Part shown: piece by piece, positions 13,438 through 44,664 of the stretch
How the letters are laid out: every line of letters starts with the position of its first letter
Numbering within the stretch: the stretch's first letter is position 1
Virus record (IMG/VR): IMGVR_UViG_3300021961_008712
Coordinates: 32,001-96,000 of that record
Length of the DNA: 64,000 nucleotides
DNA from: a virus
Strand: one strand, 5' to 3'
Translations under genes and position numbers: made by a program
The notes under the pieces: generated by a model
What the model saw: the letters and a program-made list of their open reading frames with translations, nothing else
The model's database searches: none
What the model was told of the DNA's origin: nothing

Positions 13438-13444
13438 TAAAAGC

Positions 13445-13494: not shown

Positions 13495-13504
13495 TAAGTT
13501 AAAA

Positions 13505-17959: not shown

Positions 17960-18817
17960 TTGAAAGTAATATGGGTTTATGAGAATATTAAGAGAGAACT
18001 ATCTGCATTCAGTAAGTTCAATATCTTAGTTATGCTTGCATCTGCAAGCTTATGGAAAAAGAACCATCCCGAAGACCGTACTGTTCTCTACTGTGATCCC
18101 TTCACATATGACTTCTATAAATCTATAGGAGTTCTTTCTATATATGATGAAGTAGAAATATTAGCTTTTGATAATCAGATTGATAAAAAAACTTTTTGGG
18201 CTAGTTCTAAGCTAGAAGTACTATCAAGACAGACTGAACCCATTATTATAATGGATGGAGATACTTTAGTTTTCAAAAGAGTAAAAGAGTTAATAAACCC
18301 TAATGAGGTGATGGTAAGTAATTTTGAAATAGGAAGAGGCTACTATCCTACTTCAATAGATCCATATATAAGAAAATTATCTTACAGACCAAGATGGAAA
18401 ACTGATTCGGTTAATGTATCATTTCTTCACCTACCAGACCCGGAGTTCACTCAGTATTATGCCAAACTCAGCCTACAGTTAATGGATGAGTTTACAAAAA
18501 TGGAAGCTCCAAATTCCAAATATTTAATTTTTGCAGAACAACTGCTACTTAAACATTTATTAGATAAGCATGATATACCTCATCGAGGTATGTTATCTAC
18601 TGCTTGGGACTGCGATGCATGGGAATGGAGTAAAACAGAACTTAGCGGACTATGGACTATAAAAGATTCTTGGAAGTACTATAACCACTACGGTCCTTTA
18701 AAGCAATGGTACAAAGCAGATGACCCTGGATTTCCTTACAAAAAAGAGATAGATATGTTGCTTAATTGCATTAATTTTCATAAATTAATAGACTTAAGTA
18801 TGATAGAGAAACCATGA
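17960..18817 (+). CDS. Putative nucleotide-sugar transferase (GT-A-like, DxD)
   Basis: FWASSKL...IIMDGDTL, N.SF and AEQ motifs. TTG start. Confidence 0.55.
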   Translation: MKVIWVYENIKRELSAFSKFNILVMLASASLWKKNHPEDRTVLYCDPFTYDFYKSIGVLSIYDEVEILAFDNQIDKKTFWASSKLEVLSRQTEPIIIMDGDTLVFKRVKELINPNEVMVSNFEIGRGYYPTSIDPYIRKLSYRPRWKTDSVNVSFLHLPDPEFTQYYAKLSLQLMDEFTKMEAPNSKYLIFAEQLLLKHLLDKHDIPHRGMLSTAWDCDAWEWSKTELSGLWTIKDSWKYYNHYGPLKQWYKADDPGFPYKKEIDMLLNCINFHKLIDLSMIEKP

Positions 18818-19608
18818 GCATAGTTGATAAGAATTTTGTTTACGATAAGATTACGAATAATCAAGTTTATAAAAAAGCACCAAGTGGTGAGATTATTATT
18901 GACTATGAAAGAGTTAAGTATGCATGGGCACATGGAGCAACACGTTACCACTTAGGAGATGGTCTATTAGTATACTCTATCATTCAATTTATGAGAGCAA
19001 AGAACTGTGTATGTTTAGGCTCTGGAGGAGGCTTTATTCCTCGTATTATGACACAGGCAAGACTAGATCTATATGATCAAGAAATATTTGAAGGTAATTC
19101 AGATTTTAATTGGGGAGATATCGGTGCAACTTTTATCGTAGATGCAGCAAACGGAGTAGGAGGAAACGTAGACTGGCTAGAAGAAGATTCATTTTTCAGA
19201 AACATATTTCATCCTAGAGTTATAAACGATACAACTGAAAATGCATTTTATAATTTTTTCGTAAAAGAGGATATTAAAATTGATTATCTTCATATTGACG
19301 CAGGACATTCGTTTGAGGATGTTAAAAGAGATTTTGAGCTATATAAAAACATATTATCTGATTACGGAGTAATATCAATACACGATACAGATAGGTCTTA
19401 TGAAAAATCCTATATAGTTTCTAAAGATATTAAAGATCAAAATCACCATGATGAATTTGCTTCTGGTCCTGCTGACTTAGTTGACTTACTTAAGAATGAT
19501 CCGAACTTTGAAGTTTTTAACTTTTTCAATAACGGAGCATTAAAAACTAAACCTTCTTCAACAGGATTCACACTAGTTAAGAAATCATTTCCTAACGTAT
19601 CGTTATAA
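18814..19608 (+). CDS. Class I SAM-dependent methyltransferase (Methyltransf_24-like)
   Basis: CLGSGGG and IDYLHIDAGHSFEDVKRDF...G.I.IHD. Confidence 0.8.
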   Translation: MSIVDKNFVYDKITNNQVYKKAPSGEIIIDYERVKYAWAHGATRYHLGDGLLVYSIIQFMRAKNCVCLGSGGGFIPRIMTQARLDLYDQEIFEGNSDFNWGDIGATFIVDAANGVGGNVDWLEEDSFFRNIFHPRVINDTTENAFYNFFVKEDIKIDYLHIDAGHSFEDVKRDFELYKNILSDYGVISIHDTDRSYEKSYIVSKDIKDQNHHDEFASGPADLVDLLKNDPNFEVFNFFNNGALKTKPSSTGFTLVKKSFPNVSL

Positions 19609-20453
19609 TGTTAAATTTAGTTACAGTAGTAGGGAAAAATACTCATATGCTACCGCATATGCTTAACCACTATAAAAATATAGTAGCACCTGAAAACATA
19701 CACGTAGCAGTATATAGACACTCAGACGATGACGGCATCCTAGAGGAAATAGAAGAACTAGGTATTATTCCATTTAGAGTTTATACACACGAAAAATACA
19801 ACTGGGAGAAAGTAACAGACATCTACAATGAAATCAAATCTACCAAGCCAAATGAATGGTGGATAGTATCTGATGATGATGAACTACAAGTATATCCTTA
19901 CGCAGTAGAAGACATAATAGAAGCATGTGAGAGAAACGGTTATGACTTTGTCACAGGTGGGTTCATAGATAGAATAGGTATAGATGGTACTTTTCCTTTT
20001 GTGGACAGAGACACAAATATACACAAAACTTTTCCTTTGGCTTCTTTCTTTAGATATCATATGTCTGGAGCATGTCCTAACAAATGTACCTTAATGAAAG
20101 GTTATCAAAAAGTAACACCAGGACAACACTATGCCCTATTCTCCGATGGTTCAAATAGCTGGGGTAAAAGCCATCCTAGAAGGATGCCGGTGGATGAAGT
20201 ATTTACCCAAGTTCATCATTTTAAATGGGATAAGAGCTGTGTAGATAGAATACAGGAGGTAGCAGAGATTAAAAAAGATTATGCATTTTCAAAAGAGTAT
20301 AACAAAATGTATAGAGCTATTGCTAGAAATGACTGGAAAATAGATATCAATAATTCTTTATACTTAGTTGCTGAACTGAAAGAAAGTTCGTATATTGAGT
20401 ATATGGACTATCCATACTGGGATGAGCTTAGAAATTTAATTATAACTATATGA
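19608..20453 (+). CDS. Glycosyltransferase family 2-like
   Basis: LPHMLNHY, WWIVSDDDEL, GQH and VHHFKW motifs. Confidence 0.7.
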   Translation: MLNLVTVVGKNTHMLPHMLNHYKNIVAPENIHVAVYRHSDDDGILEEIEELGIIPFRVYTHEKYNWEKVTDIYNEIKSTKPNEWWIVSDDDELQVYPYAVEDIIEACERNGYDFVTGGFIDRIGIDGTFPFVDRDTNIHKTFPLASFFRYHMSGACPNKCTLMKGYQKVTPGQHYALFSDGSNSWGKSHPRRMPVDEVFTQVHHFKWDKSCVDRIQEVAEIKKDYAFSKEYNKMYRAIARNDWKIDINNSLYLVAELKESSYIEYMDYPYWDELRNLIITI

Positions 20454-20650
20454 GTGCACAAACAGAAATTAATTTAGATCAAGAAAAACTTCTCATTGAA
20501 GAGAGAAAAGTTAAAGCATTAGAAAAAATTGCTATGTCTTTAGACGCATTAACTGTATGGTTTGAAGAAATAGATAAAGAAGATTGGGATAGTAGAATCC
20601 AATTCTATTTAGCGGAATGGCATAAAAATCTTGTAGAAGGACAAAAATAG
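20450..20650 (+). CDS. Small hypothetical protein
   Basis: ATGA-coupled 66-aa ORF. Confidence 0.6.
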   Translation: MSAQTEINLDQEKLLIEERKVKALEKIAMSLDALTVWFEEIDKEDWDSRIQFYLAEWHKNLVEGQK

Positions 20651-20651
20651 T

Positions 20652-22049
20652 ATGCTAAAGAAACTTGGAGTTATTGTACCGTATAGAAATAGGTATGAGC
20701 ATCTCTTAAAGTTTAAAATGGCTATTCAAGCTAAACTCTATGAAGCTAAAATTCCTTACGAATTAATTGTTGTAGAGCAAGATGATAGCGCTAACTTTAA
20801 TAGAGGTAAGCTACTTAATGTCGGTTTTATTGAAGCAGAAAAGCTAGGGTGTGATTACGTTTGTTTTCATGACGTAGATATGATACCTCAAAAAGTAGAC
20901 TATTCATACTGCGATCATCCTATACACTTAGCTACACAAGATATTCCATTTGATGAATACTTTGGAGGTATTACTATGTTTCCCCTAGATGATTTCAAAA
21001 AAATAAATGGTTTTTCAAATAAATACTGGGGATGGGGTTTTGAAGACGATGACTTGCTTTGGAGATGTAAGATAAAAGGCGTTATGTTAAACTCAATCAA
21101 AGTAACTGATGCTGGTACTAGTGGTGCTGCTTTAAAGTTTAACGGAAACTCTTCTTATGTTAAGCTTCCTAATACCATTCGGACTAGAGGAGATTTTAGT
21201 ATACTTGTGTCGATGGAACCAACAGACATTACTCTTGATCCAAATGCGAGAGAAGATAAGTATGTAGCTTTTGGTATTCCCGGGTTTGACTTTAACATTA
21301 TGTACACCAGCTTTCGTAGATTTGCTGTAGAATTTTTTGATGCAAGAAAACAACACCAGTTTGCATTCTCTAATATTATACCATTAGTTAAAGCTAATTT
21401 ATTTATTACCTATAGTAAAGATAGAAACGAACTTAACTTTTTCCATAATACCAATCTGATAAAAAAAGTAGAGTTAGAAAAACCTCTTTATTTATATATG
21501 AAAGAGGAACATATGTACTTAGGATGCTCAGACCCAAAAAGAAAAGAAGAAAATAACTGGTTTAGAGGAGTTATTAATCAGTTTGCTGCTTGGGATAAAG
21601 AATTAACTTTTGATGAAATTCAAGATATCACAGATAATAATTACTTTGGATTAGCAGATAACTTTAAAAACTATCAATCTGCAGGCAATTTGACTTCTTA
21701 TTATGATGCTAAATTTATTAAGAAATACAAACTAATAGACATGTCCGATACTGCTATAGACGGAGAAATTGTAGACTGTGAATTAGTAGCGTACGACTTA
21801 CCAAAAATGAAAAGAATGTCTATTCCTTATAGAAGAGATAGTAAATATAGAACTCTAAACCACGAACACGAAGGATTCTTAAATACAGGATGGAAAGATA
21901 TTACAACAAGATACAACCAATTAAAGTTTATGAACGAAGTTATGAGAGGGTATGGTATGCCAGAGGAAGATGGTCTTACTACCTGTAAGTACAGGCTATT
22001 ATCTCATTCTAAAGTCGGAAACTTAACACAATTAATAGCACACTTATGA
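20652..22049 (+). CDS. GT7 (beta-1,4-galactosyltransferase-like) with inserted LamG/ConA-like domain
   Basis: VPYRNR, FNRGKLLNVG, FHDVD and GFSNKYWGWGFEDDD. Insert runs from ALKFNG to FRGVINQFAAWDKELT. Confidence 0.88.
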   Translation: MLKKLGVIVPYRNRYEHLLKFKMAIQAKLYEAKIPYELIVVEQDDSANFNRGKLLNVGFIEAEKLGCDYVCFHDVDMIPQKVDYSYCDHPIHLATQDIPFDEYFGGITMFPLDDFKKINGFSNKYWGWGFEDDDLLWRCKIKGVMLNSIKVTDAGTSGAALKFNGNSSYVKLPNTIRTRGDFSILVSMEPTDITLDPNAREDKYVAFGIPGFDFNIMYTSFRRFAVEFFDARKQHQFAFSNIIPLVKANLFITYSKDRNELNFFHNTNLIKKVELEKPLYLYMKEEHMYLGCSDPKRKEENNWFRGVINQFAAWDKELTFDEIQDITDNNYFGLADNFKNYQSAGNLTSYYDAKFIKKYKLIDMSDTAIDGEIVDCELVAYDLPKMKRMSIPYRRDSKYRTLNHEHEGFLNTGWKDITTRYNQLKFMNEVMRGYGMPEEDGLTTCKYRLLSHSKVGNLTQLIAHL

Positions 22050-23461
22050 AATTAGGAGTATGTGTTCCGTACAGAAATAGAGAAGCTCACTTAAATGAGT
22101 TTGTACCGAAAGTAGGGAAGTACTTAAAAAGTCAAGGTATAGACTTTTGTATGTATTTTGCTCATCAGGTAGATGATAAACTTTTTAATAGAGGAGCTAC
22201 CAAAAATATTGCTGCTAAACATGCATTTCAAGACGGATGTGATTATATAGTATGGCATGATATAGATATGATACCTGAAGAAAATGGAGGAGCAGATTAT
22301 AGTTTTCCCACAGAAGGCCCTAGACATATTGCTACTCAGATTTCTCAAATGGATTACCAGCTTAAGTATCATGAATACTTTGGAGGAGCAGTTTTATTCA
22401 GCAAAGAACAAGTACTAGCTACTAATGGGTATTCAAATGACTACTGGGATTGGGGAATGGAAGATGATGATTTATTTTGGAGATGTCAGTTAGAAGGGCT
22501 TACAAATCAGACTTATATAGACAAAAAAATTGAAGGTCAGTATTTTAAAAGATTTGATGGAGATAAATCATTTATAAAAGTTCCATTTCAGAGAGAGATG
22601 AGATCCTTAAATTCTAGATCTCATACACTTTCTGTACTACTCCGTGCTAGGCAACAACCAGAAAAAAATCCTATATTTCTTATTGGAAGTAATAAAAGAA
22701 AGTATGTAGAATATCCTGTTGTTAGAGTGAAAGGGTACGACTACGGAATTGGATTTAACAACTCAAGAACAGTTTCTCTAACCTATTGGAATACATTCCA
22801 TCAACATAACTACATGTGGGTTAAAAGGTACGATGAGCAATGGACTTGGGTAACAGCTGTATTCGATAGTTTTGAAAGAAAATCTCACTTCTACCTGAAC
22901 GGCTCAGAGGTTGATTCTAGAGGAGGTTATGGTACGCATTCACCATTATCGTTTACTGGAAGACTTAAAAATTACGGTACAGAAGATTGGTACATAGGAA
23001 CCTCACCTTCAGAACCAGATGATAGTACAGTTAAGTACTTTAAAGGAGATATTGCAAAAGTATATGCCTGGAAGCGTCCTCTTTCTACAAAAGAAGTGGC
23101 AAATTTACATAATGAACTACCTACTGATGATTTAGTTATTGATCTAGATTTTAACAATCCTAAATCAGAATTTTTTGAATACGGTACAGAAGATAGAAAA
23201 GAAGATATATTAGTACCTAATTCTATTTTACCACATAGAATAGAAGGAAAGTTTAGATGTTTACCTCATCCTGATGAAGGTATAGTAAATGGAAAATTTG
23301 TCAAAGGTGAAACAACTGCTAGAAACGAACAAAGATATGTTCTTCAAATGCAGCAAGAAAAAATAAATTATAAAGAAGACGGTATAAAGCAAGTTCAATA
23401 TGAATTAGTTAGCGAAGAGCTGCTTACTCCTTGGGCTAAAATGATTAATATTAAATTATGA
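22046..23461 (+). CDS. Second GT7 with inserted LamG/ConA-like domain
   Basis: VPYRNR, FNRG, WHDID and GYSNDYWDWGMEDDD. Insert includes FYLNG...FKGDIAKVYAWKRPLS. Confidence 0.88.
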   Translation: MKLGVCVPYRNREAHLNEFVPKVGKYLKSQGIDFCMYFAHQVDDKLFNRGATKNIAAKHAFQDGCDYIVWHDIDMIPEENGGADYSFPTEGPRHIATQISQMDYQLKYHEYFGGAVLFSKEQVLATNGYSNDYWDWGMEDDDLFWRCQLEGLTNQTYIDKKIEGQYFKRFDGDKSFIKVPFQREMRSLNSRSHTLSVLLRARQQPEKNPIFLIGSNKRKYVEYPVVRVKGYDYGIGFNNSRTVSLTYWNTFHQHNYMWVKRYDEQWTWVTAVFDSFERKSHFYLNGSEVDSRGGYGTHSPLSFTGRLKNYGTEDWYIGTSPSEPDDSTVKYFKGDIAKVYAWKRPLSTKEVANLHNELPTDDLVIDLDFNNPKSEFFEYGTEDRKEDILVPNSILPHRIEGKFRCLPHPDEGIVNGKFVKGETTARNEQRYVLQMQQEKINYKEDGIKQVQYELVSEELLTPWAKMINIKL

Positions 23462-24837
23462 CATCTCAAGAAGTAAAAGATAAATTAGATAAGGTAGGTT
23501 GTGGATTCTGTTTAGCAAAATGGACTCAAGTAACTATGCACCTTTCTATGGGAATGACTCATTCTTGTCACCACCCTTCTCCTCACAAAATAGGGTTAAA
23601 CGAGATTAAAAGAAATCCTACTGCGCTTCATAATACAAAGTTTAAAAAACTTAAAAGAAAAGAAATGCTTGAGGGAAAAAAACCTCAAGAGTGTAACTAT
23701 TGCTGGAATGTTGAAGATAATTCTAATTCATTTTCTGATAGAGTATTTAAATCATCAGAACCTTGGTCAATTAAGAGTTACGATGATATAGTAAATTCAC
23801 ATTGGAGAGATGATTTTAATCCTAGGTACGTAGAGGTTGCTTTCTCTAATACTTGTAATTTCAAATGCGCTTACTGTGGTCCTCAATTCTCATCTAAGTG
23901 GGTAGATGAAATAGAAAAACACGGTCCGTATCCCACTTCCACTAATTTTAACGGCATCGAACACCTCAAGGCAAAAAATGAAATGCCTTATAAGCACTCA
24001 GAAGATAATCCTTATCTAGATGCATTTTGGGAATGGTGGCCAAGTTTGTATCGTGATTTGCATACTTTTAGAATTACAGGTGGAGAGCCTCTACTTGCCA
24101 AGGACACTTTTAAAGTTCTAGATTATATTATAGAACAAGAAGAACCTAACACAGAATTAGCATTATCTATAAACTCTAATTTAGGAATACCAGATAACTT
24201 ACTTGATAAATTTATTGCTAAAGCTAAGATATTGTGTGAACAAGATAAGGTGAAAGAGTTAGTAGTCTTTACATCTGTAGAAGCTAAAGGTAAGCAGGCT
24301 GAATATACAAGATTCGGTTTGGAGTATGATAAATTTTGGCAAAACGTAGATAAGATATTAACGGAGCTACCTAAAGTAACGGTTAATATTATGGCTACCT
24401 TTAATGCACTGTCTGTCTTCACATATAGCGATTTAGTCGATAAGGTATTTGAAATGAAGAAAAAACACCACAATGGTAAACGTTATTCCATTTCTGCTGT
24501 ACAATTAGATACTTCGTACTTACGTTGGCCTAATCACCTTTCTGTTCGTATATTAGATGAAGAGCATAAAGAGTATATACTCCAAGCTGCTAAAAAAGCA
24601 CTATACTATGGACAGAGAGAATTTTCTCATAACACATACGGATTTACAAACGTAGAGATACAGAAAATTAAAAGAATATACGACTATGCTAAAGGTCATA
24701 GCGTTACATACGATAAACAAAAAAATATAGATGACTTTATTATATTTGTAGACGAATTAGATAAACGAAGAGGTACAAATTTCTTAGAGACATTCCCTGA
24801 ACTAAAAGAGTTTTATGCTAGAAATAAAAGAGGGTAA
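23458..24837 (+). CDS. Radical SAM enzyme with N-terminal Cys-rich (twitch-like) domain
   Basis: CNFKCAYC and TGGEPL. N-terminal FCLAKW..SCHH..CNYCW. Confidence 0.9.
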   Translation: MTSQEVKDKLDKVGCGFCLAKWTQVTMHLSMGMTHSCHHPSPHKIGLNEIKRNPTALHNTKFKKLKRKEMLEGKKPQECNYCWNVEDNSNSFSDRVFKSSEPWSIKSYDDIVNSHWRDDFNPRYVEVAFSNTCNFKCAYCGPQFSSKWVDEIEKHGPYPTSTNFNGIEHLKAKNEMPYKHSEDNPYLDAFWEWWPSLYRDLHTFRITGGEPLLAKDTFKVLDYIIEQEEPNTELALSINSNLGIPDNLLDKFIAKAKILCEQDKVKELVVFTSVEAKGKQAEYTRFGLEYDKFWQNVDKILTELPKVTVNIMATFNALSVFTYSDLVDKVFEMKKKHHNGKRYSISAVQLDTSYLRWPNHLSVRILDEEHKEYILQAAKKALYYGQREFSHNTYGFTNVEIQKIKRIYDYAKGHSVTYDKQKNIDDFIIFVDELDKRRGTNFLETFPELKEFYARNKRG

Positions 24838-25402
24838 GCCATGGGTCTTTTGGCCAAGCCATATATGCGATACCTTTCCAGAAAAACCTGCAAATAAGGT
24901 TATGACTGGAGATCAGGAATTTGAAGTATATGTAGATTTAAAGTTAAATAAGACTGAGAAAGTAATTGGAACCTTATTTACTCTGCTTCCACATTATACA
25001 GCTATGGATATATATGAAGGCCGTTTACTCTTTACTATGATGAATCAAGATAGAGAAACAACCTATTGGGATTTACCCCAACCTATATATGATGATTTAA
25101 GATTAAGAATATTGTGGAAACATGTCCCAAATAAAACTTTCACAGTATTTATTAATAGTAGACAAGTTCATGAAGTAGACTTAACTGAGAAAGCATTTGC
25201 CACAGAAGACGATCCTCACATAATCTTCGGCGCAGGAAACTTTCCTAAAAATGGCTACAACTTGAACTACACTGATATAGAGTTATACGAATTTAAGGTT
25301 ATGCAAAATAATCAATTACTTTGCCACCATACTTTTGAAGACTTTATATTTGACAAATCAGTAGATATTACTGATAATTGTAATTTTATGAATAAACTGT
25401 AA
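24815..25402 (+). CDS. Hypothetical beta-sandwich (LamG/ConA-like) protein
   Basis: VFIN, IIFGAG and D.TDNCN beta-rich pattern. Confidence 0.45.
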   Translation: MLEIKEGKPWVFWPSHICDTFPEKPANKVMTGDQEFEVYVDLKLNKTEKVIGTLFTLLPHYTAMDIYEGRLLFTMMNQDRETTYWDLPQPIYDDLRLRILWKHVPNKTFTVFINSRQVHEVDLTEKAFATEDDPHIIFGAGNFPKNGYNLNYTDIELYEFKVMQNNQLLCHHTFEDFIFDKSVDITDNCNFMNKL

Positions 25403-26155
25403 ATGAAAAAGTTAATAGTCTGTGGTGATTCGTATATGGCTGCTACGCAGGATCTTCCTGATAGAGCAGATTGCCTAGGTGAAGGACATTTTACTCAAAT
25501 ACTTGCTAAAGAATTAAACTTAGAGTACGACACTTTTGCTAGAGGCGGGTCATCTAACTTTCTTATTTACCTTCAAGTAAAAGAAGCAATTAAACTAAAA
25601 CCAGACCTCATTATGGTAGGGTTTACAGACAGTAATAGAGTAGAGATTTTAAACGCAGAATACTACAATAAGGATTTAGATGGTAATAGTATTGATGTTT
25701 ATCAATTTAACTATCATGAGTACCCTGATTTATCTACTGCATTAAGAAAAGAAAAGTGGAATAATAAACCAAGGTATATTTCTACATCTGTAATTAACGT
25801 AATAGATTTCCCAGAAAATTTTGAAGACAAAGGCAGGCTTTTTAGTGATAATAATTTGAAAATATATAAGGATTATTTTACTTCATTCTGGAGCCCTTCT
25901 ATTCAATCTTTATATAGTAATATATTGATGAATCATACTATAGATTTATTAAATAAGTCTAAGATAGAGTATTATATACTAGGACTAGGAGACCCTACGG
26001 ATGATCGTAGAGATAAAAGGGGAAGTAAAAATCTTAACCCACAAAATCAACCTGGCGGAGGACCCTACAGATGGCATACCACTGCAGAAACTCAAAACAT
26101 ATTAGCAAAAAATTGGATTAACTATTTTAAAGACTTATGGCAGATAAACAACTAG
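25403..26155 (+). CDS. SGNH/GDSL hydrolase-like protein
   Basis: VCGDSY, ARGGSSN and C-terminal WH. Confidence 0.65.
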   Translation: MKKLIVCGDSYMAATQDLPDRADCLGEGHFTQILAKELNLEYDTFARGGSSNFLIYLQVKEAIKLKPDLIMVGFTDSNRVEILNAEYYNKDLDGNSIDVYQFNYHEYPDLSTALRKEKWNNKPRYISTSVINVIDFPENFEDKGRLFSDNNLKIYKDYFTSFWSPSIQSLYSNILMNHTIDLLNKSKIEYYILGLGDPTDDRRDKRGSKNLNPQNQPGGGPYRWHTTAETQNILAKNWINYFKDLWQINN

Positions 26156-30278: not shown

Positions 30279-30279
30279 T

Positions 30280-37044: not shown

Positions 37045-38933
37045 AAAACTTATACCTTGTACAAGTAGCCGACAAATATGGTCCAAATAGCTTTCTGCCT
37101 GTAGCGATTAGCTATCAGTGGATGTTTGCTAGTACAAGTAAGTTAGTAAAAGAAAACTTTAGAGTAGCTGATGTACTTATTGAAAAAAAGAATCCACATA
37201 AATATGTTGACTCTATAGTAGACGAACCTCACGTTATAATGCTCAGTTCTTACGTATGGAATTGGGAATATAATAAAGTCTTAGCTAGACTAATTAAAGC
37301 TAAATTCCCAAACTGTCTTGTAGTTACAGGTGGACCTAATGTAGATAAAAGAGATAAAGACTTTTTTACTAACTATCCTATGTTTGATATAGCAGTCATG
37401 GGCGAAGGAGAACAAGCATCAAAAGAGATCTTAAAAAGATATCTCAAAAAAGAATCTTATAAAGGTATTCCTCATGTATTTCCAAAAGGAGGTGAGCTAT
37501 GCCCATTACCTCAAAGAGCTGAAGACTTAAACATAATACCCTCACCTATACTTACAGGCTTTTATGACTGGATAATAGAAAGAGTTGAAGCAGAGCACGG
37601 ACCTCAAATGTGGCAGGTAACTTATGAAACACTAAGAGGTTGTCCCTATAGGTGTTCTTTTTGCGATATCGGAGACTTATACTGGCAAAAGCTAAAACTT
37701 TTTGACCTACCTAGAGTAGAAAAAGAAATAGATTGGATGTCAGATAGAAAAATAGAATATGTAGCAGTTTGCGACTCCAATTGGGGATTAATGCCTAGAG
37801 ATGTTGATATAACAAAGTATGTAATTAAAAAGAAATTAGAAACTGGATTTCCTAAATTCTGGGATGTAACCTGGGCAAAAGCTAACTCAGACAGAATCTA
37901 TGAAATTGCAATGCTTGATAAAAAAGCCGGTACTCGTTTGTTTAAAGGAGTTACTTTTGCTATGCAATCCCTTCATCAAGAGACCTTAGATGCCTCTAGA
38001 AGGTTAAATTTAAAGTATGAGGATGCTTTTGAATACTTAATTAAGTACCGTGAAGCAGATATACCTACTTACTCAGAGTTAATCTGGCCTATGCCTGAAG
38101 AAACTTATGACTCTCTTAAAAGCGGGATACAGAAACTTATTGATATTGGTCAAAAAGATTTCTTAATGGTACACCCACTTGTTTTAACTTTTAATGCTGA
38201 AATGGGACAACCTGCATATAGAGAAAAATACGGGTTATTATTTAAAGAAGTTCCTTTAGATACTTTTTACCTTAGTGTAGAAGATTTAGAAGACTATATC
38301 GTTGAAAAGACATGGGGTGTAATTGGAACTAACACAGCATCCCCACAAGAGGTATATAGAGGTCATTTATTATCCCATCTATTAATAGTTATGTACTATT
38401 ACGGCTGGGGTCATTATCTTCTTGAATATCTTAAATCTAAATATAACATTGATCATGTAGATGTTATAGAAAAAATGTTAGAATACTTTATGGAAACTCC
38501 TAGTTTAATTGGATCTGAATTACAAGAGACTATTAATGGACTAACAGGAGTATTTAATGAACAAAAATTTTGGGGTAGACAGGTTTTAGGCGACGATGAT
38601 GTATTTTGGGAGTACAAAGGAGCGACTAGTATAGTATTTTTTCAAAACAGAGATAAACTAAGTTTAGAACTAAACAATTTCTGTAAAGAAGCCCTTAATA
38701 TAGATGCATCAGACGCTATTAGGCTCAACTTAGATATGTGTCACGATCCTAATCGTAATTATCCTCTTACTAACACATACGAGGAAGATACGGTACTTAA
38801 CTGTTTAAATAGTTATGATAAGACTATAACGATAGACCACTACGACAAAACAGAAATGACAGAAAAAGAGTTTTTTCATACGGCCTATCACTATCAACGT
38901 AAAAATAGATATTGGAGATGTCAAATTTTATAG
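37041..38933 (+). CDS. Cobalamin-dependent (class B) radical SAM enzyme
   Basis: B12-domain motifs SSYVWN, GGPNV and GEGE, then RGCPYRCSFC. Confidence 0.9.
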   Translation: MKNLYLVQVADKYGPNSFLPVAISYQWMFASTSKLVKENFRVADVLIEKKNPHKYVDSIVDEPHVIMLSSYVWNWEYNKVLARLIKAKFPNCLVVTGGPNVDKRDKDFFTNYPMFDIAVMGEGEQASKEILKRYLKKESYKGIPHVFPKGGELCPLPQRAEDLNIIPSPILTGFYDWIIERVEAEHGPQMWQVTYETLRGCPYRCSFCDIGDLYWQKLKLFDLPRVEKEIDWMSDRKIEYVAVCDSNWGLMPRDVDITKYVIKKKLETGFPKFWDVTWAKANSDRIYEIAMLDKKAGTRLFKGVTFAMQSLHQETLDASRRLNLKYEDAFEYLIKYREADIPTYSELIWPMPEETYDSLKSGIQKLIDIGQKDFLMVHPLVLTFNAEMGQPAYREKYGLLFKEVPLDTFYLSVEDLEDYIVEKTWGVIGTNTASPQEVYRGHLLSHLLIVMYYYGWGHYLLEYLKSKYNIDHVDVIEKMLEYFMETPSLIGSELQETINGLTGVFNEQKFWGRQVLGDDDVFWEYKGATSIVFFQNRDKLSLELNNFCKEALNIDASDAIRLNLDMCHDPNRNYPLTNTYEEDTVLNCLNSYDKTITIDHYDKTEMTEKEFFHTAYHYQRKNRYWRCQIL

Positions 38934-38942
38934 ATAAACAAA

Positions 38943-40007
38943 ATGATATACGACTCTAAAGATAGCTTTCTCTATGTAAACGTATGGGAATGGTTAACCC
39001 CAGACGATGTACTAAATTTTATTAATTTACATAAAGTAGATAACCTAGTTTTTGATTCTACTTCTGAACCGTTTTTATTTGACCCCAACAATCGCTTGGA
39101 TGAACTTTTTTTTGATGGATTAAATAATCTCAATTTAAGAAAGTGTAATATATTTACAGGTCATTTTATAGATAATGAAACTATAAACAAATTCCCTAAT
39201 TTAAAATTCAGTACTTTTCCATTCATTTTTCTAAGTAAAACAGCAGCATGCTCACATACTGGTTTTAATTTTCCTCTTTTAACTTTTGATAAAGAGAACA
39301 TAAAAACTTTATTTCATTCCCATATAGGTAGACCTAGAGAGCATAGATGTATGCTTATAGACTACTTAAGTAAGGAAGGTTTATTTGATTACTCTACTAT
39401 GAGCTATGTAATTAATATAAGTGAATATATTGGTTCAAATAACAAGGAACATATAGACGGTTATTTTAAATACAAATATTGGACAGAAACTAAACTTATT
39501 GATAGTAGTGATAAAGGAGTAGAGACTGCTTTTATTGACAATTATGCTAAACCTGGAGAACAGTACATTAATAGCTTATTTGATTTAGTTCAAGAAACCA
39601 GCCCTGATCATATATTCTGGACAGAAAAAACCTGGAAGCCTGTTTTATATGAAAAGCCTTTCATTATTTGGGGAGCACCAAAAATTAATAGTAGATTAAA
39701 AGAGTTTGGATTTAAATTATTTGATTCTGTAGTAGATTATAGTTTTGACGAAATAGAAGACACAGAGGAAAGAGCTAAAGCATTAGTTAGTGAGTTAAAA
39801 AGACTTTCATCCGGTAATTATCAACAAATGTACAGTGATATGAGAGATGTTTGTGAAACAAATAGAAAACAGGCTATAGAGATTATTTATAATGAAAAAT
39901 CTGAGAGACCTATTTTTTCTCAAATAAGCAAACTAACCTCCAGATTTAGTCAACTTATCTTTAATTTTGACGAATTAAATATATGTCAACACCAGATACA
40001 ATTATAA
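38943..40007 (+). CDS. Putative GT-B glycosyltransferase, paralogue 4
   Basis: GRPREHR...LVQET...FWTEKTWKP...KPF...GFKLF..DYSFD. Confidence 0.55.
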   Translation: MIYDSKDSFLYVNVWEWLTPDDVLNFINLHKVDNLVFDSTSEPFLFDPNNRLDELFFDGLNNLNLRKCNIFTGHFIDNETINKFPNLKFSTFPFIFLSKTAACSHTGFNFPLLTFDKENIKTLFHSHIGRPREHRCMLIDYLSKEGLFDYSTMSYVINISEYIGSNNKEHIDGYFKYKYWTETKLIDSSDKGVETAFIDNYAKPGEQYINSLFDLVQETSPDHIFWTEKTWKPVLYEKPFIIWGAPKINSRLKEFGFKLFDSVVDYSFDEIEDTEERAKALVSELKRLSSGNYQQMYSDMRDVCETNRKQAIEIIYNEKSERPIFSQISKLTSRFSQLIFNFDELNICQHQIQL

Positions 40008-40008
40008 G

Positions 40009-41091
40009 ATGTCACCTAAAGTAAGAATAATAAATCAGTGGAGTAATGAGTATAATGTCGCCGACTATCAATGGTGGTACAATGATTTATTAGAGCAAAA
40101 TTACGATGTTCTAATTTTTAACGGACTATGGGAATGGGAATTTTATCATCCTTGGGATCATAAAAACGAATGGAAATATAAATTTGAAAAATTAGTATAC
40201 GAAAGAGGAGTACAAATTTATATACTCCATGGTACAAACGGTCCTATACATAAAGGAAGAGTAAAAACTACTGTACCTGGAGATACTGTTTATATGCACT
40301 TTCCTTTATTTTGGCTATACTGTACAGGGTTTTATGGAAGAGGAGCCGTAGATGATCCTGAAGGACATATCTTAACATATGATCTTGAACATAATAAAAG
40401 ACATTCTCAACCCATCAACCCAGATACATTGTTTATTAGCCTAGTTAATAAAGCACACGACCATCGCTGTTATGGAATGGATCAACTTGCTAGGTATAAG
40501 ATACTTACAAACGGAGTAGCTAAAAATGGAATTATAAATTATAGCTGGCACGATCAGTTAGATCAGAGTAAAGACTACCCATTCGTGTATTGGAAGTACC
40601 AAAAGACCTCTTTATCTGATCCTTATTCTGTGAATTTAGATTCATATATGACTACCCCTGATGAACAATTTAGTTCTGCATTTAATATAGTTTTTGAATC
40701 TCATATGCACGAAACATTTTGGACCGAAAAAACATTTACTGCAATACTACTAGGTAAACCCTTTTTAATTTTAGGCGGGGAAGATATGAATATCGGTCTT
40801 AGTCCTTATGGATTTGAAAAATTTGATGAGGTTATCGATTACAGTATTGATTTAGATCCAAATTATCAATCTAGATACAGTAGATATGCTCAAAACCTAG
40901 CAAATATAAAACAAGAATATTTGGGTAAAGAAAAAGAACTTTATAATCTACTTAAACCAAAAGCAGAACACAATAAGCAACTAATGATTACAATTCTTAA
41001 AGAAAAAAAATTTATACCTCCTGCTATCAAAGAGCTTTTAGAAAGATACAATGTAGCAAATAAAGTGGGAGGATTTGATTTTTTACTTTAA
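40009..41091 (+). CDS. Putative GT-B glycosyltransferase, paralogue 5
   Basis: NKAHDHR...IVFES...FWTEKTF...KPF...GFEKF..DYSID. Confidence 0.55.
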   Translation: MSPKVRIINQWSNEYNVADYQWWYNDLLEQNYDVLIFNGLWEWEFYHPWDHKNEWKYKFEKLVYERGVQIYILHGTNGPIHKGRVKTTVPGDTVYMHFPLFWLYCTGFYGRGAVDDPEGHILTYDLEHNKRHSQPINPDTLFISLVNKAHDHRCYGMDQLARYKILTNGVAKNGIINYSWHDQLDQSKDYPFVYWKYQKTSLSDPYSVNLDSYMTTPDEQFSSAFNIVFESHMHETFWTEKTFTAILLGKPFLILGGEDMNIGLSPYGFEKFDEVIDYSIDLDPNYQSRYSRYAQNLANIKQEYLGKEKELYNLLKPKAEHNKQLMITILKEKKFIPPAIKELLERYNVANKVGGFDFLL

Positions 41092-41096
41092 AAAAG

Positions 41097-41125
41097 TTGT
41101 TTTTTTGATATTTATTTTATATATT
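41097..41125 (+). promoter_or_regulatory. Sigma70-like promoter TTGTTT-N17-TATATT
   Basis: Exact 17-nt spacer, intergenic, upstream of the dehydrogenase. Confidence 0.6.
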
Positions 41126-41149
41126 GTTATTAACTAAAACACAGTTTTC

Positions 41150-42319
41150 ATGAAAATAGGATTTATAGGAGTCGGCAAATTAGGAAAAGACGCAGCCGAA
41201 GTAATGGCAGAAAAACACGACGTATTAGGATACGACGTTGCCGACGTCAAACCAGAAAATTTTCAAATGGTACCTACGATCAAGGATGTATGCCAAGATC
41301 GAGAAATGATTTTCATTGCCGTACCTACTCCACACCACCCAGACTACGATGGTAGATATCCTACTGCTCATTTACCTAACAAAGACTTTAACTATACGAT
41401 AGTAAAAGATGTATTAACAGAAGTAAATAAGCATGTAACTAAGGATCAACTTGTAGTTTTAATTTCAACAGTACTTCCCGGAACAATCCGTAGAGAGTTT
41501 ATTAACTTAATTCCTAACGGTAGATTTATTTATAACCCATACTTAATTGCTATGGGAACAGTAAAGTGGGATATGGTTAATCCTGAAATGGTTATTATTG
41601 GAACTGAGGACGGTTCTATGACCGGTGATGCACAGTTACTTTTAGATTTTTATAGAACATTTATTAAAGAAGGTACTAGATATGAAGTTGGTACTTGGGA
41701 TGAAGCAGAAGGAATTAAAATTTTCTATAATACATTTATCTCTACAAAAGTTGCACTAGTTAATATGATTCAAGACGTTGCTGAAAAATCAGGTAACATG
41801 AATGTAGACGTAGTAGCAGGAGCATTAGAGAGATCAACTTATAGAATCTTAGGACCAGCTTACATGAAAGCAGGAATGGGAGATGGTGGTGGTTGTCACC
41901 CAAGAGATAATATCGCTTTGCGCTATATGGCTGAAAGTCTAGATTTAGGTTATGACTTGTTTGATGCAATTATGAATGCTAGAGAAGTACAAGCTAAAAA
42001 TATGGCTCAAAAGTTAGTTGATATTGCTAACGACAGTAAACTACCTATCATTATTCTAGGCAAAGCATATAAACCAGACGTAGACTATATTGACGGTTCT
42101 TCTTCTATATTAGTCGGTCATTATTGTTCTGAATTGGGTATAGTACCTGAATTTGATCAACCTAATCCGTACAAAGCAGTTTACCTATTAGCACATATGG
42201 GTAAGGATCATGATTATGATTTCCCTGCTGGTTCCGTAGTTGTAGATCCATGGAGAGCGTTTATACCAAAGAACGACTCAATTGATGTAGTGCACTATGG
42301 CAACACCAGAATACAATAG
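41150..42319 (+). CDS. ugd: UDP-glucose/GDP-mannose 6-dehydrogenase
   Basis: GVGKLG, AVPTP, STVLPG, AEGIK..YN, GGGCHPRD and AYKPDVD. Confidence 0.9.
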   Translation: MKIGFIGVGKLGKDAAEVMAEKHDVLGYDVADVKPENFQMVPTIKDVCQDREMIFIAVPTPHHPDYDGRYPTAHLPNKDFNYTIVKDVLTEVNKHVTKDQLVVLISTVLPGTIRREFINLIPNGRFIYNPYLIAMGTVKWDMVNPEMVIIGTEDGSMTGDAQLLLDFYRTFIKEGTRYEVGTWDEAEGIKIFYNTFISTKVALVNMIQDVAEKSGNMNVDVVAGALERSTYRILGPAYMKAGMGDGGGCHPRDNIALRYMAESLDLGYDLFDAIMNAREVQAKNMAQKLVDIANDSKLPIIILGKAYKPDVDYIDGSSSILVGHYCSELGIVPEFDQPNPYKAVYLLAHMGKDHDYDFPAGSVVVDPWRAFIPKNDSIDVVHYGNTRIQ

Positions 42320-43286
42320 GCTTTTTGCAGTAGGATGTAGTTATACTAATTACGCGACTCCTACCTACGCTGACATACTAGGGCTGAATTTCTACAAAAC
42401 AGTCAACATGGGTAAATCAGGCGGAGGTAATAGGTACATATTTAATACACTTTGTTATGTATTTAATGAACTTAAGCCTAAAAAAGGCGACGTAGTAATA
42501 GCCCAATGGTCAGGAATTGCTAGATATGATTCAATTATAGGACAAAGTGTAGATTGGTCTACCCCGGGAAACTTAAATTGGCAAGGTATCTATCCTCTAG
42601 ACGAATTTGTTAAGCCTTGGTTTAATATAGTGGAAAGAGCGTACGAATATGTTAGCTATATTACTGCCATCGCCGCACTCGCCAAACAATCAGAAGCCAC
42701 TTTTATTAATACTAATATGTTTGACCCGTGGCATGGTATGTTTTACGGAGAACCTTTTCAAACAGAAGTATTTAACTCCCAACTCAAGTACATTAATAGA
42801 TACTTTCCAAAAGAATTAATGCAAAGAACTTGTCAAGAGTTAAACTTTCCAACAAGTATCGAAGAATACCAGTGGCAAGTTGGTCCTTTCGCGCAGCCTT
42901 ATTTATTTAATAAGACAGGCCAAGGTATATACGATACTGATCTTCCTGATGGTACTCAAAGAGATACTCACCCTACCACTAAAGGACATCACGAGTACGC
43001 TAAGTATATAGATAAATTATATGAATTAGGATGTAACCATATATATTCTGATGCTGTTACAGCAGTAGTAGATAAAGTACATGCAGATCAAACAGACCCT
43101 ACATTCTCCTTTATAAAATCTAGAAAAGATAAAATGTACGAATCTTCGGCGAAATCAAACGTAAGTTATGACCCACAGTACTTTTACCATAAAGTAAAAG
43201 CCAAGGGTCATTATTTTCAACGCCACCATTCTTTAGATATACATGGATACTCTAATGACCCGGTAAAGAGATGGCTAAAGCAGTAA
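42297..43286 (+). CDS. SGNH hydrolase-like protein
   Basis: AVGCSYT, NMGKSGGGN, QWS..R.D and DTHPT..GH. Confidence 0.65.
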   Translation: MATPEYNRLFAVGCSYTNYATPTYADILGLNFYKTVNMGKSGGGNRYIFNTLCYVFNELKPKKGDVVIAQWSGIARYDSIIGQSVDWSTPGNLNWQGIYPLDEFVKPWFNIVERAYEYVSYITAIAALAKQSEATFINTNMFDPWHGMFYGEPFQTEVFNSQLKYINRYFPKELMQRTCQELNFPTSIEEYQWQVGPFAQPYLFNKTGQGIYDTDLPDGTQRDTHPTTKGHHEYAKYIDKLYELGCNHIYSDAVTAVVDKVHADQTDPTFSFIKSRKDKMYESSAKSNVSYDPQYFYHKVKAKGHYFQRHHSLDIHGYSNDPVKRWLKQ

Positions 43287-43927
43287 TTATTTCTGGACTT
43301 TTAGATAGTCTTTCTGAAAATATTATTCCTATAATCAAGAATAAGGATGTATACGTTCATACCTGGTATAACAAAGAAAATGAACGGTGGATAAACAAAC
43401 TCAATAGATTTAAAAAATACACAACCAATCTGTATATAACTGTTGATGAACCGAAGTATGAATCTAAACTCTTCTCTCATTTCTATTCTACTTGGAAAGC
43501 ATTTAATATTATTCAAGATGCTAGTAAATATAACCTGGTAGTTAAACTTAAACCTAATTTAGAGACAGAGAAGATAGAATACCAAGGTAATATAGAAGAT
43601 TACTTTTATAAAGCATACATATCTAATAGACCTTTATTAAATAACTATACATATAAAGACTGTATGTACGGCAGTATATACTATAAGACTATAGATGAAA
43701 GATTTTTTTCCGGACACCCGTTGGTATTTGAAAAAATATTTCGTATCTTAGAAGAAGAACTAGATATTAAAATGCAAAACATTAATCAGGAACTATCTAC
43801 CAAGTACGGTAACTACGAAGGAAGCCTGTTTTGGACGAAATGGTTTGATAATTTAAATATTCCTATTATTCAAGATACTGATTTAGTTCTACCTAATAAT
43901 ATACGTAGTAAATATGAAACTTACTAA
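43271..43927 (+). CDS. Hypothetical protein, possible glycosyltransferase-like
   Basis: AVIISG...DVYVHTW...Y.LVVKL.P pattern seen in viral glycan clusters. Position in the cluster supports this. Confidence 0.45.
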   Translation: MAKAVIISGLLDSLSENIIPIIKNKDVYVHTWYNKENERWINKLNRFKKYTTNLYITVDEPKYESKLFSHFYSTWKAFNIIQDASKYNLVVKLKPNLETEKIEYQGNIEDYFYKAYISNRPLLNNYTYKDCMYGSIYYKTIDERFFSGHPLVFEKIFRILEEELDIKMQNINQELSTKYGNYEGSLFWTKWFDNLNIPIIQDTDLVLPNNIRSKYETY

Positions 43928-44408
43928 TGAAGAATGTATCCAACTAATACAACAAAGTGAATCTCATGATTGGCATAGAGTAGAAAGAATTTTAACTAAG
44001 TACTTTATTAACTACAACGTCACGTTACCAGAATCTATTATTAGTAAAGTAAAAGAGTACACAAGAAAAGAACTGAACATTGAACTTTTAAACCTCGACT
44101 TCAAAGACTCAGCATTTTTGAAATATACAAAAGGAGACGGTTTCGAAAGACATAATGATAACAGGTCAGATAATCCACAAAATGCAAATAGGGTATATAC
44201 ACTAAACATAAGATTAAATAATGAATACAAAGGTGGAATTTTCTACTTAGATGATAAACCGTACATTAAAGAGGTAGGAGAAATATATTCGTACCGTTCT
44301 ACTATGTTTCATCATGTAAGTGAGGTTTCCGAAGGAACTAGGTATTTACTTGCTCTATTTATTAGAGTAAAAGATTACGATTACGAAAAAGCAAAGCAAA
44401 TTATATAA
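43914..44408 (+). CDS. 2OG-Fe(II) oxygenase (P4H-like)
   Basis: KY..GD.F..HND, L..EYKGG.F and HHVSEV.EGTRY. Confidence 0.88.
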   Translation: MKLTNEECIQLIQQSESHDWHRVERILTKYFINYNVTLPESIISKVKEYTRKELNIELLNLDFKDSAFLKYTKGDGFERHNDNRSDNPQNANRVYTLNIRLNNEYKGGIFYLDDKPYIKEVGEIYSYRSTMFHHVSEVSEGTRYLLALFIRVKDYDYEKAKQII

Positions 44409-44409: not shown

Positions 44410-44664
44410 ATGGCAAACACTATTAAACTTACAGAACAAGAAATAAGTACACTAAGAAATATTTCCGACAAGTTTACTGCGATGAAAGCAGAATTTGGTA
44501 ATATTTATTTACAGGAAATTAACCTCAAAGAACGTAAAGAAAGAATAGAACTTTTCTATAAGGAATTACAACAAGCTGAGCAAAATATTGCTAAAGAGCT
44601 TCAAGATAAGTACGGTAAAGGAACAGTCAATACAGAAACTGGAGAATTTACTAGCTTAAGTTAA
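44410..44664 (+). CDS. Small coiled-coil protein
   Basis: Heptad pattern. Ends with KYGKGTVNTETGEF. Confidence 0.65.
   Translation: MANTIKLTEQEISTLRNISDKFTAMKAEFGNIYLQEINLKERKERIELFYKELQQAEQNIAKELQDKYGKGTVNTETGEFTSLS

Follow-up and report, generated by a model that had tools for sequence, protein, structure and literature searches.

A 26.5-kb gene block between the tail-fibre and tail-sheath genes of an uncultivated marine phage very probably encodes a glycan synthesis and tailoring cassette

Introduction

What does a phage make with an uninterrupted 26.5-kb run of predicted sugar-handling genes lodged between its tail-fibre and tail-sheath genes, and onto what is the product placed? The locus that raises this question lies in a stretch of 64,000 nucleotides (hereafter the window) covering bases 32,001-96,000 of the 169,750-bp IMG/VR record IMGVR_UViG_3300021961_008712, which was rated 100% complete by CheckV. 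The record represents an uncultivated marine phage that has every gene on a single strand and appears to be strictly lytic and T4-like. Within the window, the gene order is capsid, PhoH, neck, a fibre gene of 1504 amino acids (aa), further fibre genes, the block in question (positions 17960-44408, + strand; hereafter the island), sheath, tube, baseplate hub and tape measure.

Comparable glycan clusters of phages have been described in publications from 2005 onwards. An initial annotation, made from the DNA letters and predicted reading frames, had described the island as a near self-contained late pathway that builds a chemically modified glycan on the virion. Our results leave us highly confident that the block is a phage-encoded glycan synthesis and tailoring cassette. 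That its acceptor is a virion protein is a tentative proposal, which we hold with somewhat less than even confidence.

Enzyme content of the island

The island holds 26 open reading frames (ORFs), all on the + strand, which overlap or abut with spacings of -34 to +9 nt, except for one 58-nt gap and one apparent gap of 198 nt. The initial annotation had counted 25 tightly coupled genes; all 25 (here g01 to g25) were recovered at 17960-44408 and are packed as described, but the true count is 26 because a 66-aa ORF (20450-20650), overlapping the g03 stop by 4 nt and abutting g04, occupies the apparent 198-nt gap. The sole true intergenic gap (41092-41149, 58 nt) contains a degenerate promoter-like motif, TATTTATT. 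The GC content of the island (18001-44000) is 0.31-0.34, compared with 0.35-0.41 in the flanking structural genes, and GenBank phages gave zero megablast matches to a 24-kb portion of the island. Island proteins were searched against Pfam, NCBIfam, PHROGs and PDB sequence profiles, and folds were predicted with AlphaFold2 (AF2) and compared using Foldseek and VIA. The ORF layout and these family searches confirm the block as it was originally observed.

At least nine soluble glycosyltransferases (GTs) are predicted in the island, namely two GT7, one NodZ/FUT8-fold, five GT-B paralogues and one weak GT2. The GT7 pair, g04 and g05 (20652-23461), are beta4GalT-like paralogues (27% identity, blastp) that match Pfam GT7N, GT7C and LamG_3, with GT7 scores of 60-70 bits that exceed the cut-offs. 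Their family profile matches beta4GalT1/7 (E 1e-45) across the first ~155 residues, and the GT7 motifs DVD (D72/D74) and WGWGxEDDD (W134-D142) are invariant in the family. The beta4GalT-type core is followed by an inserted LamG/ConA-like domain and then by a conserved C-terminal segment. The family model, the DxD and the WGWGxEDDD motif together place both proteins among the predicted members of CAZy family GT7. For the GT2-like protein g03 (19608-20453), the Glyco_tranf_2_4 match has E 8e-6 and, at 26.6 bits, stays below the cut-off of 27.5.

When sequence profiles of the GT-B, g10 and SGNH-like families were compared with PDB sequences, no useful match emerged, and for this reason the GT-B and g10 families required predicted folds. 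For g10 (27639-28676), there were zero sequence-level matches in Pfam, NCBIfam, PHROGs or PDB profiles. Its AF2 model (pLDDT 87.7) points to a NodZ/FUT8-fold (GT23/37/65-like) glycosyltransferase, with NodZ at E 4e-7 in Foldseek and NodZ, FUT8, AtFUT1 and POFUT1/2 all at probability 1.0; the HxRR motif (H172, R174, R175) is invariant across 39 sequences. Since a sequence-level match is absent, its CAZy family is not fixed within the GT23/37/65/68 superfamily. One metagenomic g10 homologue (P0222, 591 aa) is fused to a DegT domain and, in the window, g10 is followed by the DegT-like g11 (27639-29275 for the two), which suggests that the pair may act as a unit.

The five GT-B paralogues comprise g15 (32146-33468), g17 and g18 (34373-37044; 36% identical) and the shorter g20 and g21 (38943-41091), related to one another by blastp and, for g15, g20 and g21, also by alignment. 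A g18 model from 40 sequences reached a pLDDT of 89.5. All of its top 50 VIA matches were GT-B enzymes (Z 12.0-7.3, 265-300 residues aligned, full chain), and GT-B glycosyltransferases were also the top ones among 25 Foldseek matches at E<=1e-3. The modelled fold indicates that all five are GT-B glycosyltransferases, with no Pfam family matched by any of 40 family members. GT10 (PF00852) was likewise matched by 0/40 at E<=0.1; leads towards GT10 consist of one 0.79 Atlas lead and of FUT9, FUT11 and HpFucT among tied fold matches. Certain members of this GT-B family are fused to nucleoside diphosphate (NDP)-sugar epimerase domains.

These fold matches bear on two alternative targets for the sugars. 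Several of the best GT-B model matches are protein O-glycosyltransferases (GtfA/B, SdgB, SPY, OGT), the g10 fold also matches POFUT1 and POFUT2, and the island enzymes are all soluble, as would suit glycosylation of cytoplasmic host or phage proteins outside the virion as a takeover or anti-defence modification. We find this improbable, as GT-B enzymes directed at lipids, sugars and DNA match the model equally well in statistical terms, such a takeover would need neither at least nine transferases nor about a dozen tailoring enzymes, and the transcription signals (see below) are of late type. The second alternative is glycan hypermodification of the phage's own DNA. Structural matches to the GT-B model include the T4 beta- and alpha-glucosyltransferases (Z 11.2 and 9.4), and DNA-hypermodifying viral glycosyltransferases do exist (Pyle et al. 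2024, as cited in PMC12619734). However, dozens of other GT-B enzymes match on a par with these T4 enzymes. We rejected DNA glycosylation, which is very unlikely because the genome has no ThyA-type pyrimidine hydroxymethylase (PF00303, 0 matches, with positive controls).

Besides the transferases, the island encodes three radical S-adenosylmethionine (SAM) enzymes. Two of them, g06 (23458-24837) and g09 (26137-27657), are 40% identical to each other and have a twitch domain. Both pass the curated cut-off of NCBIfam NF033640 (344 and 313 bits against 170) and carry CxxxCxxC (at residue 133 in g06) as well as extra conserved Cys residues, which in g09 are N-terminal, and are thus predicted members of that family. 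We found no reaction in the literature for any NF033640 member. The third, g19 (37041-38933), matches Pfam B12-binding and Radical_SAM, and in the PDB it matches TokK (E 1.6e-65 over 440 residues) and CysS (7.6e-42); its score against the KedN5 subfamily is 207 bits, under the 700-bit cut-off. The N-terminal B12-binding domain, the radical SAM core and these characterised homologues identify g19 as a predicted class B (cobalamin-dependent) radical SAM C-methyltransferase. TokK and CysS act on a carbapenem and an aromatic methoxy group, respectively, neither of which is a sugar.

Sugar-modifying enzymes are equally well represented. g22 (41150-42319) is a uridine diphosphate (UDP)-glucose/NDP-sugar 6-dehydrogenase (Pfam UDPG_MGDP_dh, N-terminal and central domains; NCBIfam NDP-sugDHase, E 8e-43) that is 77-84% identical in relatives. 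g13 and g14 (30280-32162) are NAD-dependent epimerase/dehydratases of the short-chain dehydrogenase/reductase (SDR) type (Pfam Epimerase, E 2e-16 and 5e-46), and g14 matches GalE, TviC, LegB and UXS-like models in NCBIfam. g11 (28673-29275) resembles a truncated, 200-aa DegT/LegC/PseC-type aminotransferase (Pfam DegT, E 1.6e-15; best NCBIfam matches LegC and PseC). This short form is conserved, as g11 is 51% identical to the 195-aa ORF305 of cyanophage S-SCSM2R. The adjoining g12 (29268-30278), a pentein-fold amidinotransferase with a weak Pfam ADI match, is 43% identical to the S-SCSM2R 'inosamine amidinotransferase' (ORF309) and 27% identical to Campylobacter phage amidinotransferases. In addition, g02 (18814-19608) is a class I SAM methyltransferase (Methyltransf_24, E 1.3e-9) and g25 (43914-44408) a prolyl-hydroxylase-like 2-oxoglutarate (2OG)-Fe(II) oxygenase (2OG-FeII_Oxy_3, E 1.3e-8).

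The remaining proteins are less readily classified. Three are SGNH-like, g08 (25403-26155; N-terminal GDS motif), g16 (33435-34376; GDS at residues 22-24) and g23 (42297-43286; GCS and DTHP motifs). In these, the Gly, Ser and Gly are invariant and DxHP nearly so; none matches Pfam, and the best PDB profile match is a GDSL protein at E 0.1. g01 (17960-18817) matches DUF6734 (PF20508, 52 bits), and its Atlas clusters are mostly viral. g07 (24815-25402, 195 aa) is a possible free-standing LamG-like domain, given an hhalign match (probability 56%, E 1e-4) with the LamG region of g05-family proteins, and its homologues come after g06 homologues in the related loci L023, L031, L035 and L051. The 218-aa g24 (43271-43927) is present by itself ahead of the sheath gene in L079 and L081 and may belong to the phage backbone rather than to the cassette. 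NCBIfam and PHROGs gave zero matches for g07, g08, g10, g16, g23 and g24, and g07 and g24 have no Pfam match either. A hydropathy scan, which is a crude method, detected no transmembrane (TM)-like segment in any of the 25 numbered island proteins.

Overall, the enzyme families named by the initial annotation hold up to different degrees. The two GT7s, the five GT-B-like paralogues (blastp among themselves and the g18 fold), the sugar dehydrogenase, the two epimerases, the methyltransferase, the three radical SAM enzymes and the 2OG oxygenase were all recovered, the last five kinds by Pfam, NCBIfam or PDB matches. The predicted fold and the invariant HxRR favour the GT11/23-like call for g10. 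The GT2-like gene has its Pfam match, yet falls just short of the cut-off; the DegT protein is real by Pfam but merely 200 aa long; the amidinotransferase has a weak Pfam match but is 43% identical to an annotated cyanophage enzyme; and the three SGNH proteins are recognised by motifs only (GxS, G, DxHP). What had been called a 'DxD transferase' is the DUF6734 protein g01.

This enzyme set also echoes aminoglycoside pathways, through the amidinotransferase, DegT, the twitch radical SAM enzymes and the TokK/CysS-type B12 methylase; BtrN is the founding twitch enzyme. Another explanation would therefore be a secondary metabolite, soluble and derived from sugars (an aminoglycoside- or nucleoside-like glycoside), that is directed at competitors or host physiology. 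Carbamoyltransferases in 28/79 related cassettes would suit it, and comparable genes of cyanophages have been labelled 'antibiotic synthesis' genes or a 'secondary metabolite' cluster (PMC12801897, PMC7824862). Against this, family searches and a genome hydropathy scan found no cyclitol- or scaffold-forming enzyme and no exporter, at least nine glycosyltransferases far exceed known aminoglycoside pathways, and the five-fold GT-B paralogy suggests a long chain. We consider such a metabolite slightly less probable still than the modification of non-virion proteins.

Sugar activation, membrane machinery and a second glycan cluster

The claim that the pathway is near self-contained was overstated. 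A sugar nucleotidyltransferase of the NTP_transferase type is absent from both the island and the genome (no PF00483 match and no independent PF12804 match), and the pathway is therefore not self-contained. As for membrane machinery, no ORF in the genome has more than four TM-like segments (hydropathy scan, crude), so that nothing of Wzx/Wzy or Gtr type was seen. We rejected the idea that the phage by itself encodes a conversion of Gtr or Wzy type, given that the genome has no polytopic flippase, polymerase or GtrC-type candidate.

A second glycan cluster was observed outside the window, at genome positions 140,900-150,000 (L175:7917-16917), downstream of an amidase endolysin. It includes two GT1/GT4-type glycosyltransferases, a GT2, a TylF-like O-methyltransferase, DUF386/YhcH, NeuB (255 bits), a polysaccharide pyruvyl transferase, a CTP_transf_3 cytidylyltransferase (for cytidine monophosphate (CMP)-sugars) and an adenosine phosphosulfate (APS) kinase. 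The cytidylyltransferase is the genome's only enzyme of the nucleotidyltransferase kind. NeuB matches only three GenBank phage records, which do not include the cultured relative immuto (see below). Because g11 best matches LegC/PseC, g14 matches LegB and the second cluster has NeuB, the two clusters may cooperate towards a nonulosonic acid.

These findings cut both ways for remodelling of the host envelope, in which a foreign oligosaccharide would be built on host undecaprenyl-phosphate, lipopolysaccharide (LPS) or capsule intermediates and displayed by host export, thereby blocking superinfection or preventing re-adsorption of progeny to debris. Most bacterial O-antigen glycosyltransferases are soluble or peripheral, and at least nine glycosyltransferases with many tailoring enzymes look like an O-unit locus. 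NeuB, the CMP-sugar synthetase, pyruvyl transferase and APS kinase of the second cluster are likewise typical of surface polysaccharides. Host-envelope remodelling is also the published reading of cyanophage 'LPS' clusters, among them the systems closest to the island (P-SSM2, with 24 genes, S-SCSM1 and S-SCSM2R; PMC1079782, PMC7824862, PMC12801897), and S-SCSM2R holds the g11 and g12 homologues described above. On the other hand, the genome has no initiating phosphoglycosyl transferase, flippase, polymerase, ligase or Gtr-type membrane protein, host Wzx/Wzy would need to take a foreign unit, the probable late timing is ill-suited to superinfection exclusion, and the phage seems to be strictly lytic and T4-like. 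We view host-envelope remodelling as somewhat less likely than a virion acceptor and as the most serious of the alternatives.

Transcription signals

Across the genome, the gene strand carries 17 copies of the motif CTATTTATA and the opposite strand none. The seven copies in the window (at 1517, 2253, 5081, 10482, 44716, 49139 and 53454) are all intergenic and precede structural genes. In relatives, 66/73 related loci have TATTTATA at positions near -40 and -100 relative to the sheath start, and the strand ratio of the motif across 80 related loci is 124 vs 5. It is likely that CTATTTATA is a late promoter element of this phage group. The motif stands before structural genes and is missing from window positions 10,491 to 44,715 (the last upstream copy being at 10482-10490), a stretch that spans the three fibre genes and the island; this therefore suggests that the island is transcribed late, by read-through from the fibre-gene promoters.

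Between the island and the sheath gene lies a 10-bp hairpin with CTATTTATA after it (44692-44724, + strand), an arrangement that marks the end of the island's transcription unit. No convincing + strand terminator was seen from 13414 to 44692, in agreement with the initial annotation, which had noticed none between the fibre genes and 17960. An additional internal start before g22 is possible. In L083, the closest relative, the homologous gap before the UDP-sugar dehydrogenase gene holds an exact CTATTTATA, whereas the window copy is degenerate. Elsewhere in the window, downstream of the capsid gene, there is a strong hairpin with a T-run (1457-1538), and CTATTTATA comes directly after it, before phoH. 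A sigma-70 promoter scan was uninformative, as counts were at or under those of shuffled controls.

Relatives and distribution of the cassette

The phage is related through its sheath to Flavobacterium phage vB_FspM_immuto (genus Immutovirus, 160 kb; hereafter immuto), with 65% identity, and T4-like cyanophage and pelagiphage sheaths are more distant. In immuto, ~2.4 kb with five small genes, including a lysozyme, lie from the last fibre gene to the sheath. We compared 27 uncultured relatives for which the sequence reaches 6 kb or more upstream of the sheath gene. Cassette genes are present there in about half of them, in differing combinations: some have a UDP-sugar dehydrogenase with the GT-B family, others GT7-LamG followed by up to 7-8 divergent twitch radical-SAM paralogues. 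In some relatives the slot is empty, and neck genes directly precede the sheath gene. Tandem twitch radical-SAM arrays were observed upstream of the sheath in L023, L031, L033 and L035, with up to 7-8 copies that are 21-26% identical to g06/g09 and with few glycosyltransferases. We know of no reaction that would explain such arrays.

The order of fibre, cassette and sheath genes is retained beyond the genus. In the complete 179-kb phage G004, which belongs to a different genus and whose sheath is 51% identical, an S74-chaperone fibre is followed by a small gene, DUF6734, methyltransferase, GT2, two GT7-LamG, radical SAM, epimerase, GT-B, SGNH, GT-B, SGNH, dehydrogenase, ~5.7 kb of other genes, 2OG oxygenase and sheath. 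An S74-type fibre gene is also found 4-6 kb upstream of the first cassette gene on record in G005, G006 and G008. Synteny across related phages, which the initial annotation had proposed as a check, is thus present in all four, where the S74-type fibre, the cassette and the sheath gene keep this order.

The GT-B family is widespread. It occurs in more than 500 IMG/VR loci, on contigs of up to 360 kb, and in a library of 1.84 billion proteins it has 13,698 representatives (50%-identity clusters, E<=1e-3), with 0 matches in 50,697 GenBank phage records. Partners were counted in 79 GT-B loci fetched at 21 kb each, a length that many cassettes span entirely. The most common partners shared with the island were twitch radical SAM (52/79 loci) and UDP-sugar dehydrogenase (49/79), followed by g14-type epimerase (33/79), g23-type SGNH-like protein (30/79), GT7-LamG (17/79), amidinotransferase (14/79), short DegT (13/79) and B12 radical SAM (9/79). 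Partners absent from the window included the carbamoyltransferase noted above, GDSL (22/79), DUF5672 (18/79), ThDP E1-like and RmlC proteins (15/79 each) and full-length DegT (12/79).

Among the same GenBank phage records, twitch radical SAM matched only in Ralstonia jumbo phage RsoM2USA, where the annotated genes around the homologue are all hypothetical proteins. A scan of bacterial genomes for this enzyme returned nine contigs of metagenome-assembled genomes (MAGs), of which at least two carry cassette genes. The two contigs L167 and L168 (153 and 335 kb), labelled as a Neomarinimicrobiota MAG, carry twitch radical SAM, the GT-B family, short DegT and the dehydrogenase, and may be mis-binned phage DNA. 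Judging from these predicted genes, the cassette is common in aquatic phages.

Flanking structural genes and candidate acceptors

Several proteins encoded beside the island (all on the + strand) are of interest as possible acceptors. The 1504-aa long tail-fibre-like protein (5145-9659) is 35-43% identical to 1600-aa ORFs that adjoin cassettes in L112, L129 and L131, and its L112 homologue matches PHROG tail-fibre families (E 2e-35). Three fibre genes (10541-11881, 11976-13175 and 13505-14065; 10541-14065 overall), accompanied by a small ORF (13150-13404), have PHROG tail-fibre and virion-protein matches. The three share an N-terminal ~30 aa that matches the same immuto fibre start, and they look like interchangeable receptor-binding modules on a shared anchor. 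The next gene (14105-16891) encodes a 928-aa fibre or spike with a C-terminal Peptidase_S74 intramolecular chaperone (PF13884, E 4.5e-17), and after it comes a conserved 182-aa protein (16906-17454) that has no family match and has same-position homologues in L074 and G004.

Just before the island lies a 160-aa orphan (17458-17940) with 34% Ser/Thr, the highest share in the window, and with no homologue among 160 loci; we speculate that it could be a glycan acceptor. A search of the genome for collagen-like or Pro-rich acceptor repeats suited to the 2OG oxygenase found none that was convincing. On the other side, an 84-aa protein (44410-44664), with homologues in 56/80 sheath loci and in immuto (gp042), directly precedes the tail sheath (44810-46552; Pfam Phage_sheath_1 and 1C). 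The sheath is 580 aa long against 709 aa in immuto (L001:20001-22130), the difference being a ~120-aa insertion after residue ~107.

Discussion

From the enzyme families and the gene arrangement that we observed, we infer the reactions, their late timing and the acceptor as follows. All steps would be cytoplasmic and late, starting from host NDP-sugars. g22 would oxidise a UDP-hexose to a uronic acid, and the SDR enzymes g13 and g14 would epimerise, dehydrate or decarboxylate the sugar. Amino and amidino groups would be added by the short DegT-like g11, perhaps with g10, and by the amidinotransferase g12. The methyltransferase g02 and the TokK-like g19 would carry out O- and C-methylation, possibly repeatedly, and the twitch pair g06/g09, the 2OG oxygenase g25 and the SGNH-like proteins would provide further redox and acyl editing. 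The at least nine soluble glycosyltransferases would then assemble a long chain of many sugars. Most likely, this chain would be built directly on a co-produced phage protein, with the tail fibres encoded just upstream as the best candidates.

We favour a virion or fibre protein as acceptor over the host envelope because of the late-type context, the presence of soluble enzymes only, the lack of phage lipid-carrier machinery, the recurrent though not universal fibre adjacency, the mosaic content and the Ser/Thr-rich orphan. Mosaic cassette content among close relatives is as expected for an exposed, diversifying structure. A precedent is the glycosylation of capsid and tail tube in mycobacteriophages, as cited in PMC12619734. 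Of the interpretation first given to the island, a glycan cassette inside the late structural region is retained, and the transcription signals fit late co-expression; its near self-contained character is not.

Nonetheless, the virion reading needs to be interpreted with caution, as a number of observations weigh against it. The phage is uncultivated and its glycan is a prediction from genes, and the late-promoter interpretation of CTATTTATA comes from a sequence pattern. The cultured relative immuto does not have the block, and no island protein matches its fibre-sheath region. The capsid and tail-tube proteins align end to end and at equal length with those of the cassette-less immuto; since they have no C-terminal extension relative to immuto, an acceptor of the mycobacteriophage type is absent. 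Marine T4-like cyanophages have a hyperplastic site with metabolic genes in the slot that precedes the sheath gene (PMC2984593), and because that slot also holds purely metabolic genes, the position of the island is by itself weak evidence. The short-DegT/amidinotransferase/GT/2OG sub-module of S-SCSM2R sits among non-structural genes, and ~100 kb separate the cassette from the sheath gene in the jumbo phage records G001-G003. Only 2/10 large flanking ORFs tested from other lineages had a tail-fibre score. Finally, the closest known clusters have been read as putative host-surface modification systems (PMC1079782, PMC7824862, PMC12801897).

A broader proposal, to which we give somewhat less credence than to the virion acceptor itself, is that many large aquatic phages of Gram-negative hosts coat their fibres or virion proteins with a long, hypervariable, radical-SAM-edited glycan, perhaps with nonulosonic acid, that is made by a mobile cassette of GT-B and twitch radical SAM enzymes (a phage 'glycocalyx'). 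If such a hypervariable virion glycan is real, new carbohydrate radical chemistry would be involved. Should the virion be what carries the glycan, glycosylated particles would extend beyond mycobacteriophages and giant viruses and be a common trait of abundant marine phages, and adsorption, host range, grazing, particle stickiness and carbon export would be affected. Whatever the target, the island points to uncharacterised enzymes: a huge GT-B family for which a family model is lacking, beta4GalT cores of animal type that bear a lectin-like insert, a twitch radical-SAM family expanding to 7-8 tandem copies and a TokK-like iterative methylase in a sugar context. S-SCSM2R and RsoM2USA are cultured phages with parts of the cassette and make the question of function testable.

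Comparison with known systems

The closest known clusters are those of P-SSM2, S-SCSM1 and S-SCSM2R, which, like the island, occur in large lytic marine T4-like phages and comprise 15-24 genes with NDP-sugar epimerases and several glycosyltransferase families (PMC1079782, PMC7824862, PMC12801897). Their content also varies among close relatives, as it does here. By the combination of NDP-sugar epimerase/dehydratases with several GT families in a lytic marine T4-like phage, the island resembles these cyanophage LPS clusters. Component homology is partial: g11 and g12 have their counterparts in S-SCSM2R at the identities given above, GT-B is unmatched in GenBank phages and twitch radical SAM is matched only in RsoM2USA. 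ORF305 and ORF309 of S-SCSM2R adjoin glycosyltransferases, a radical SAM enzyme and a 164-aa 2OG oxygenase, in a sub-module placed away from structural genes, whereas the island lies between fibre and sheath genes. The island differs further in its Bacteroidota-type host lineage and in its added GT7-LamG, TokK-like B12 radical SAM and SGNH-like proteins. Unlike cyanophage clusters that themselves encode a sugar kinase and a nucleotidyltransferase (Iyer et al. 2021, PMC7824862), it has neither.

In position, the island resembles the g15-g18 hyperplastic region of cyanomyoviruses (Millard et al. 2009, via PMC2984593), a variable slot just upstream of the sheath that is either empty or small or else filled. 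As described there, that slot holds 4-14 genes, mostly metabolic, compared with 26 ORFs, 26.5 kb and glycan chemistry in the island. The same review called the slot position unique to cyanophages (PMC2984593). What is new here is the Bacteroidota-type lineage, the size and enzyme set of the block, the fold assignment of two unannotated transferase families, the conservation of the promoter motif and the second, NeuB-containing cluster.

Virion glycosylation by soluble, cytoplasmic, virus-encoded enzymes with genes near structural genes is a feature of chlorovirus PBCV-1 and of mimivirus fibrils. To our knowledge, the radical-SAM content of the island has no counterpart in these systems or in mycobacteriophages. 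Compared with the mycobacteriophages, which use two glycosyltransferases and C-terminal acceptor extensions on capsid or tube, the island, known from genes alone, has a far larger enzyme set and no such extensions. What it shares with Che8, Corndog and Myrna (PMC12619734) is soluble virus-encoded glycosyltransferases beside structural genes together with lineage-specific tailoring sets, and the placement of glycosyltransferase genes next to structural genes that characterises the mycobacteriophage type is found in the island as well.

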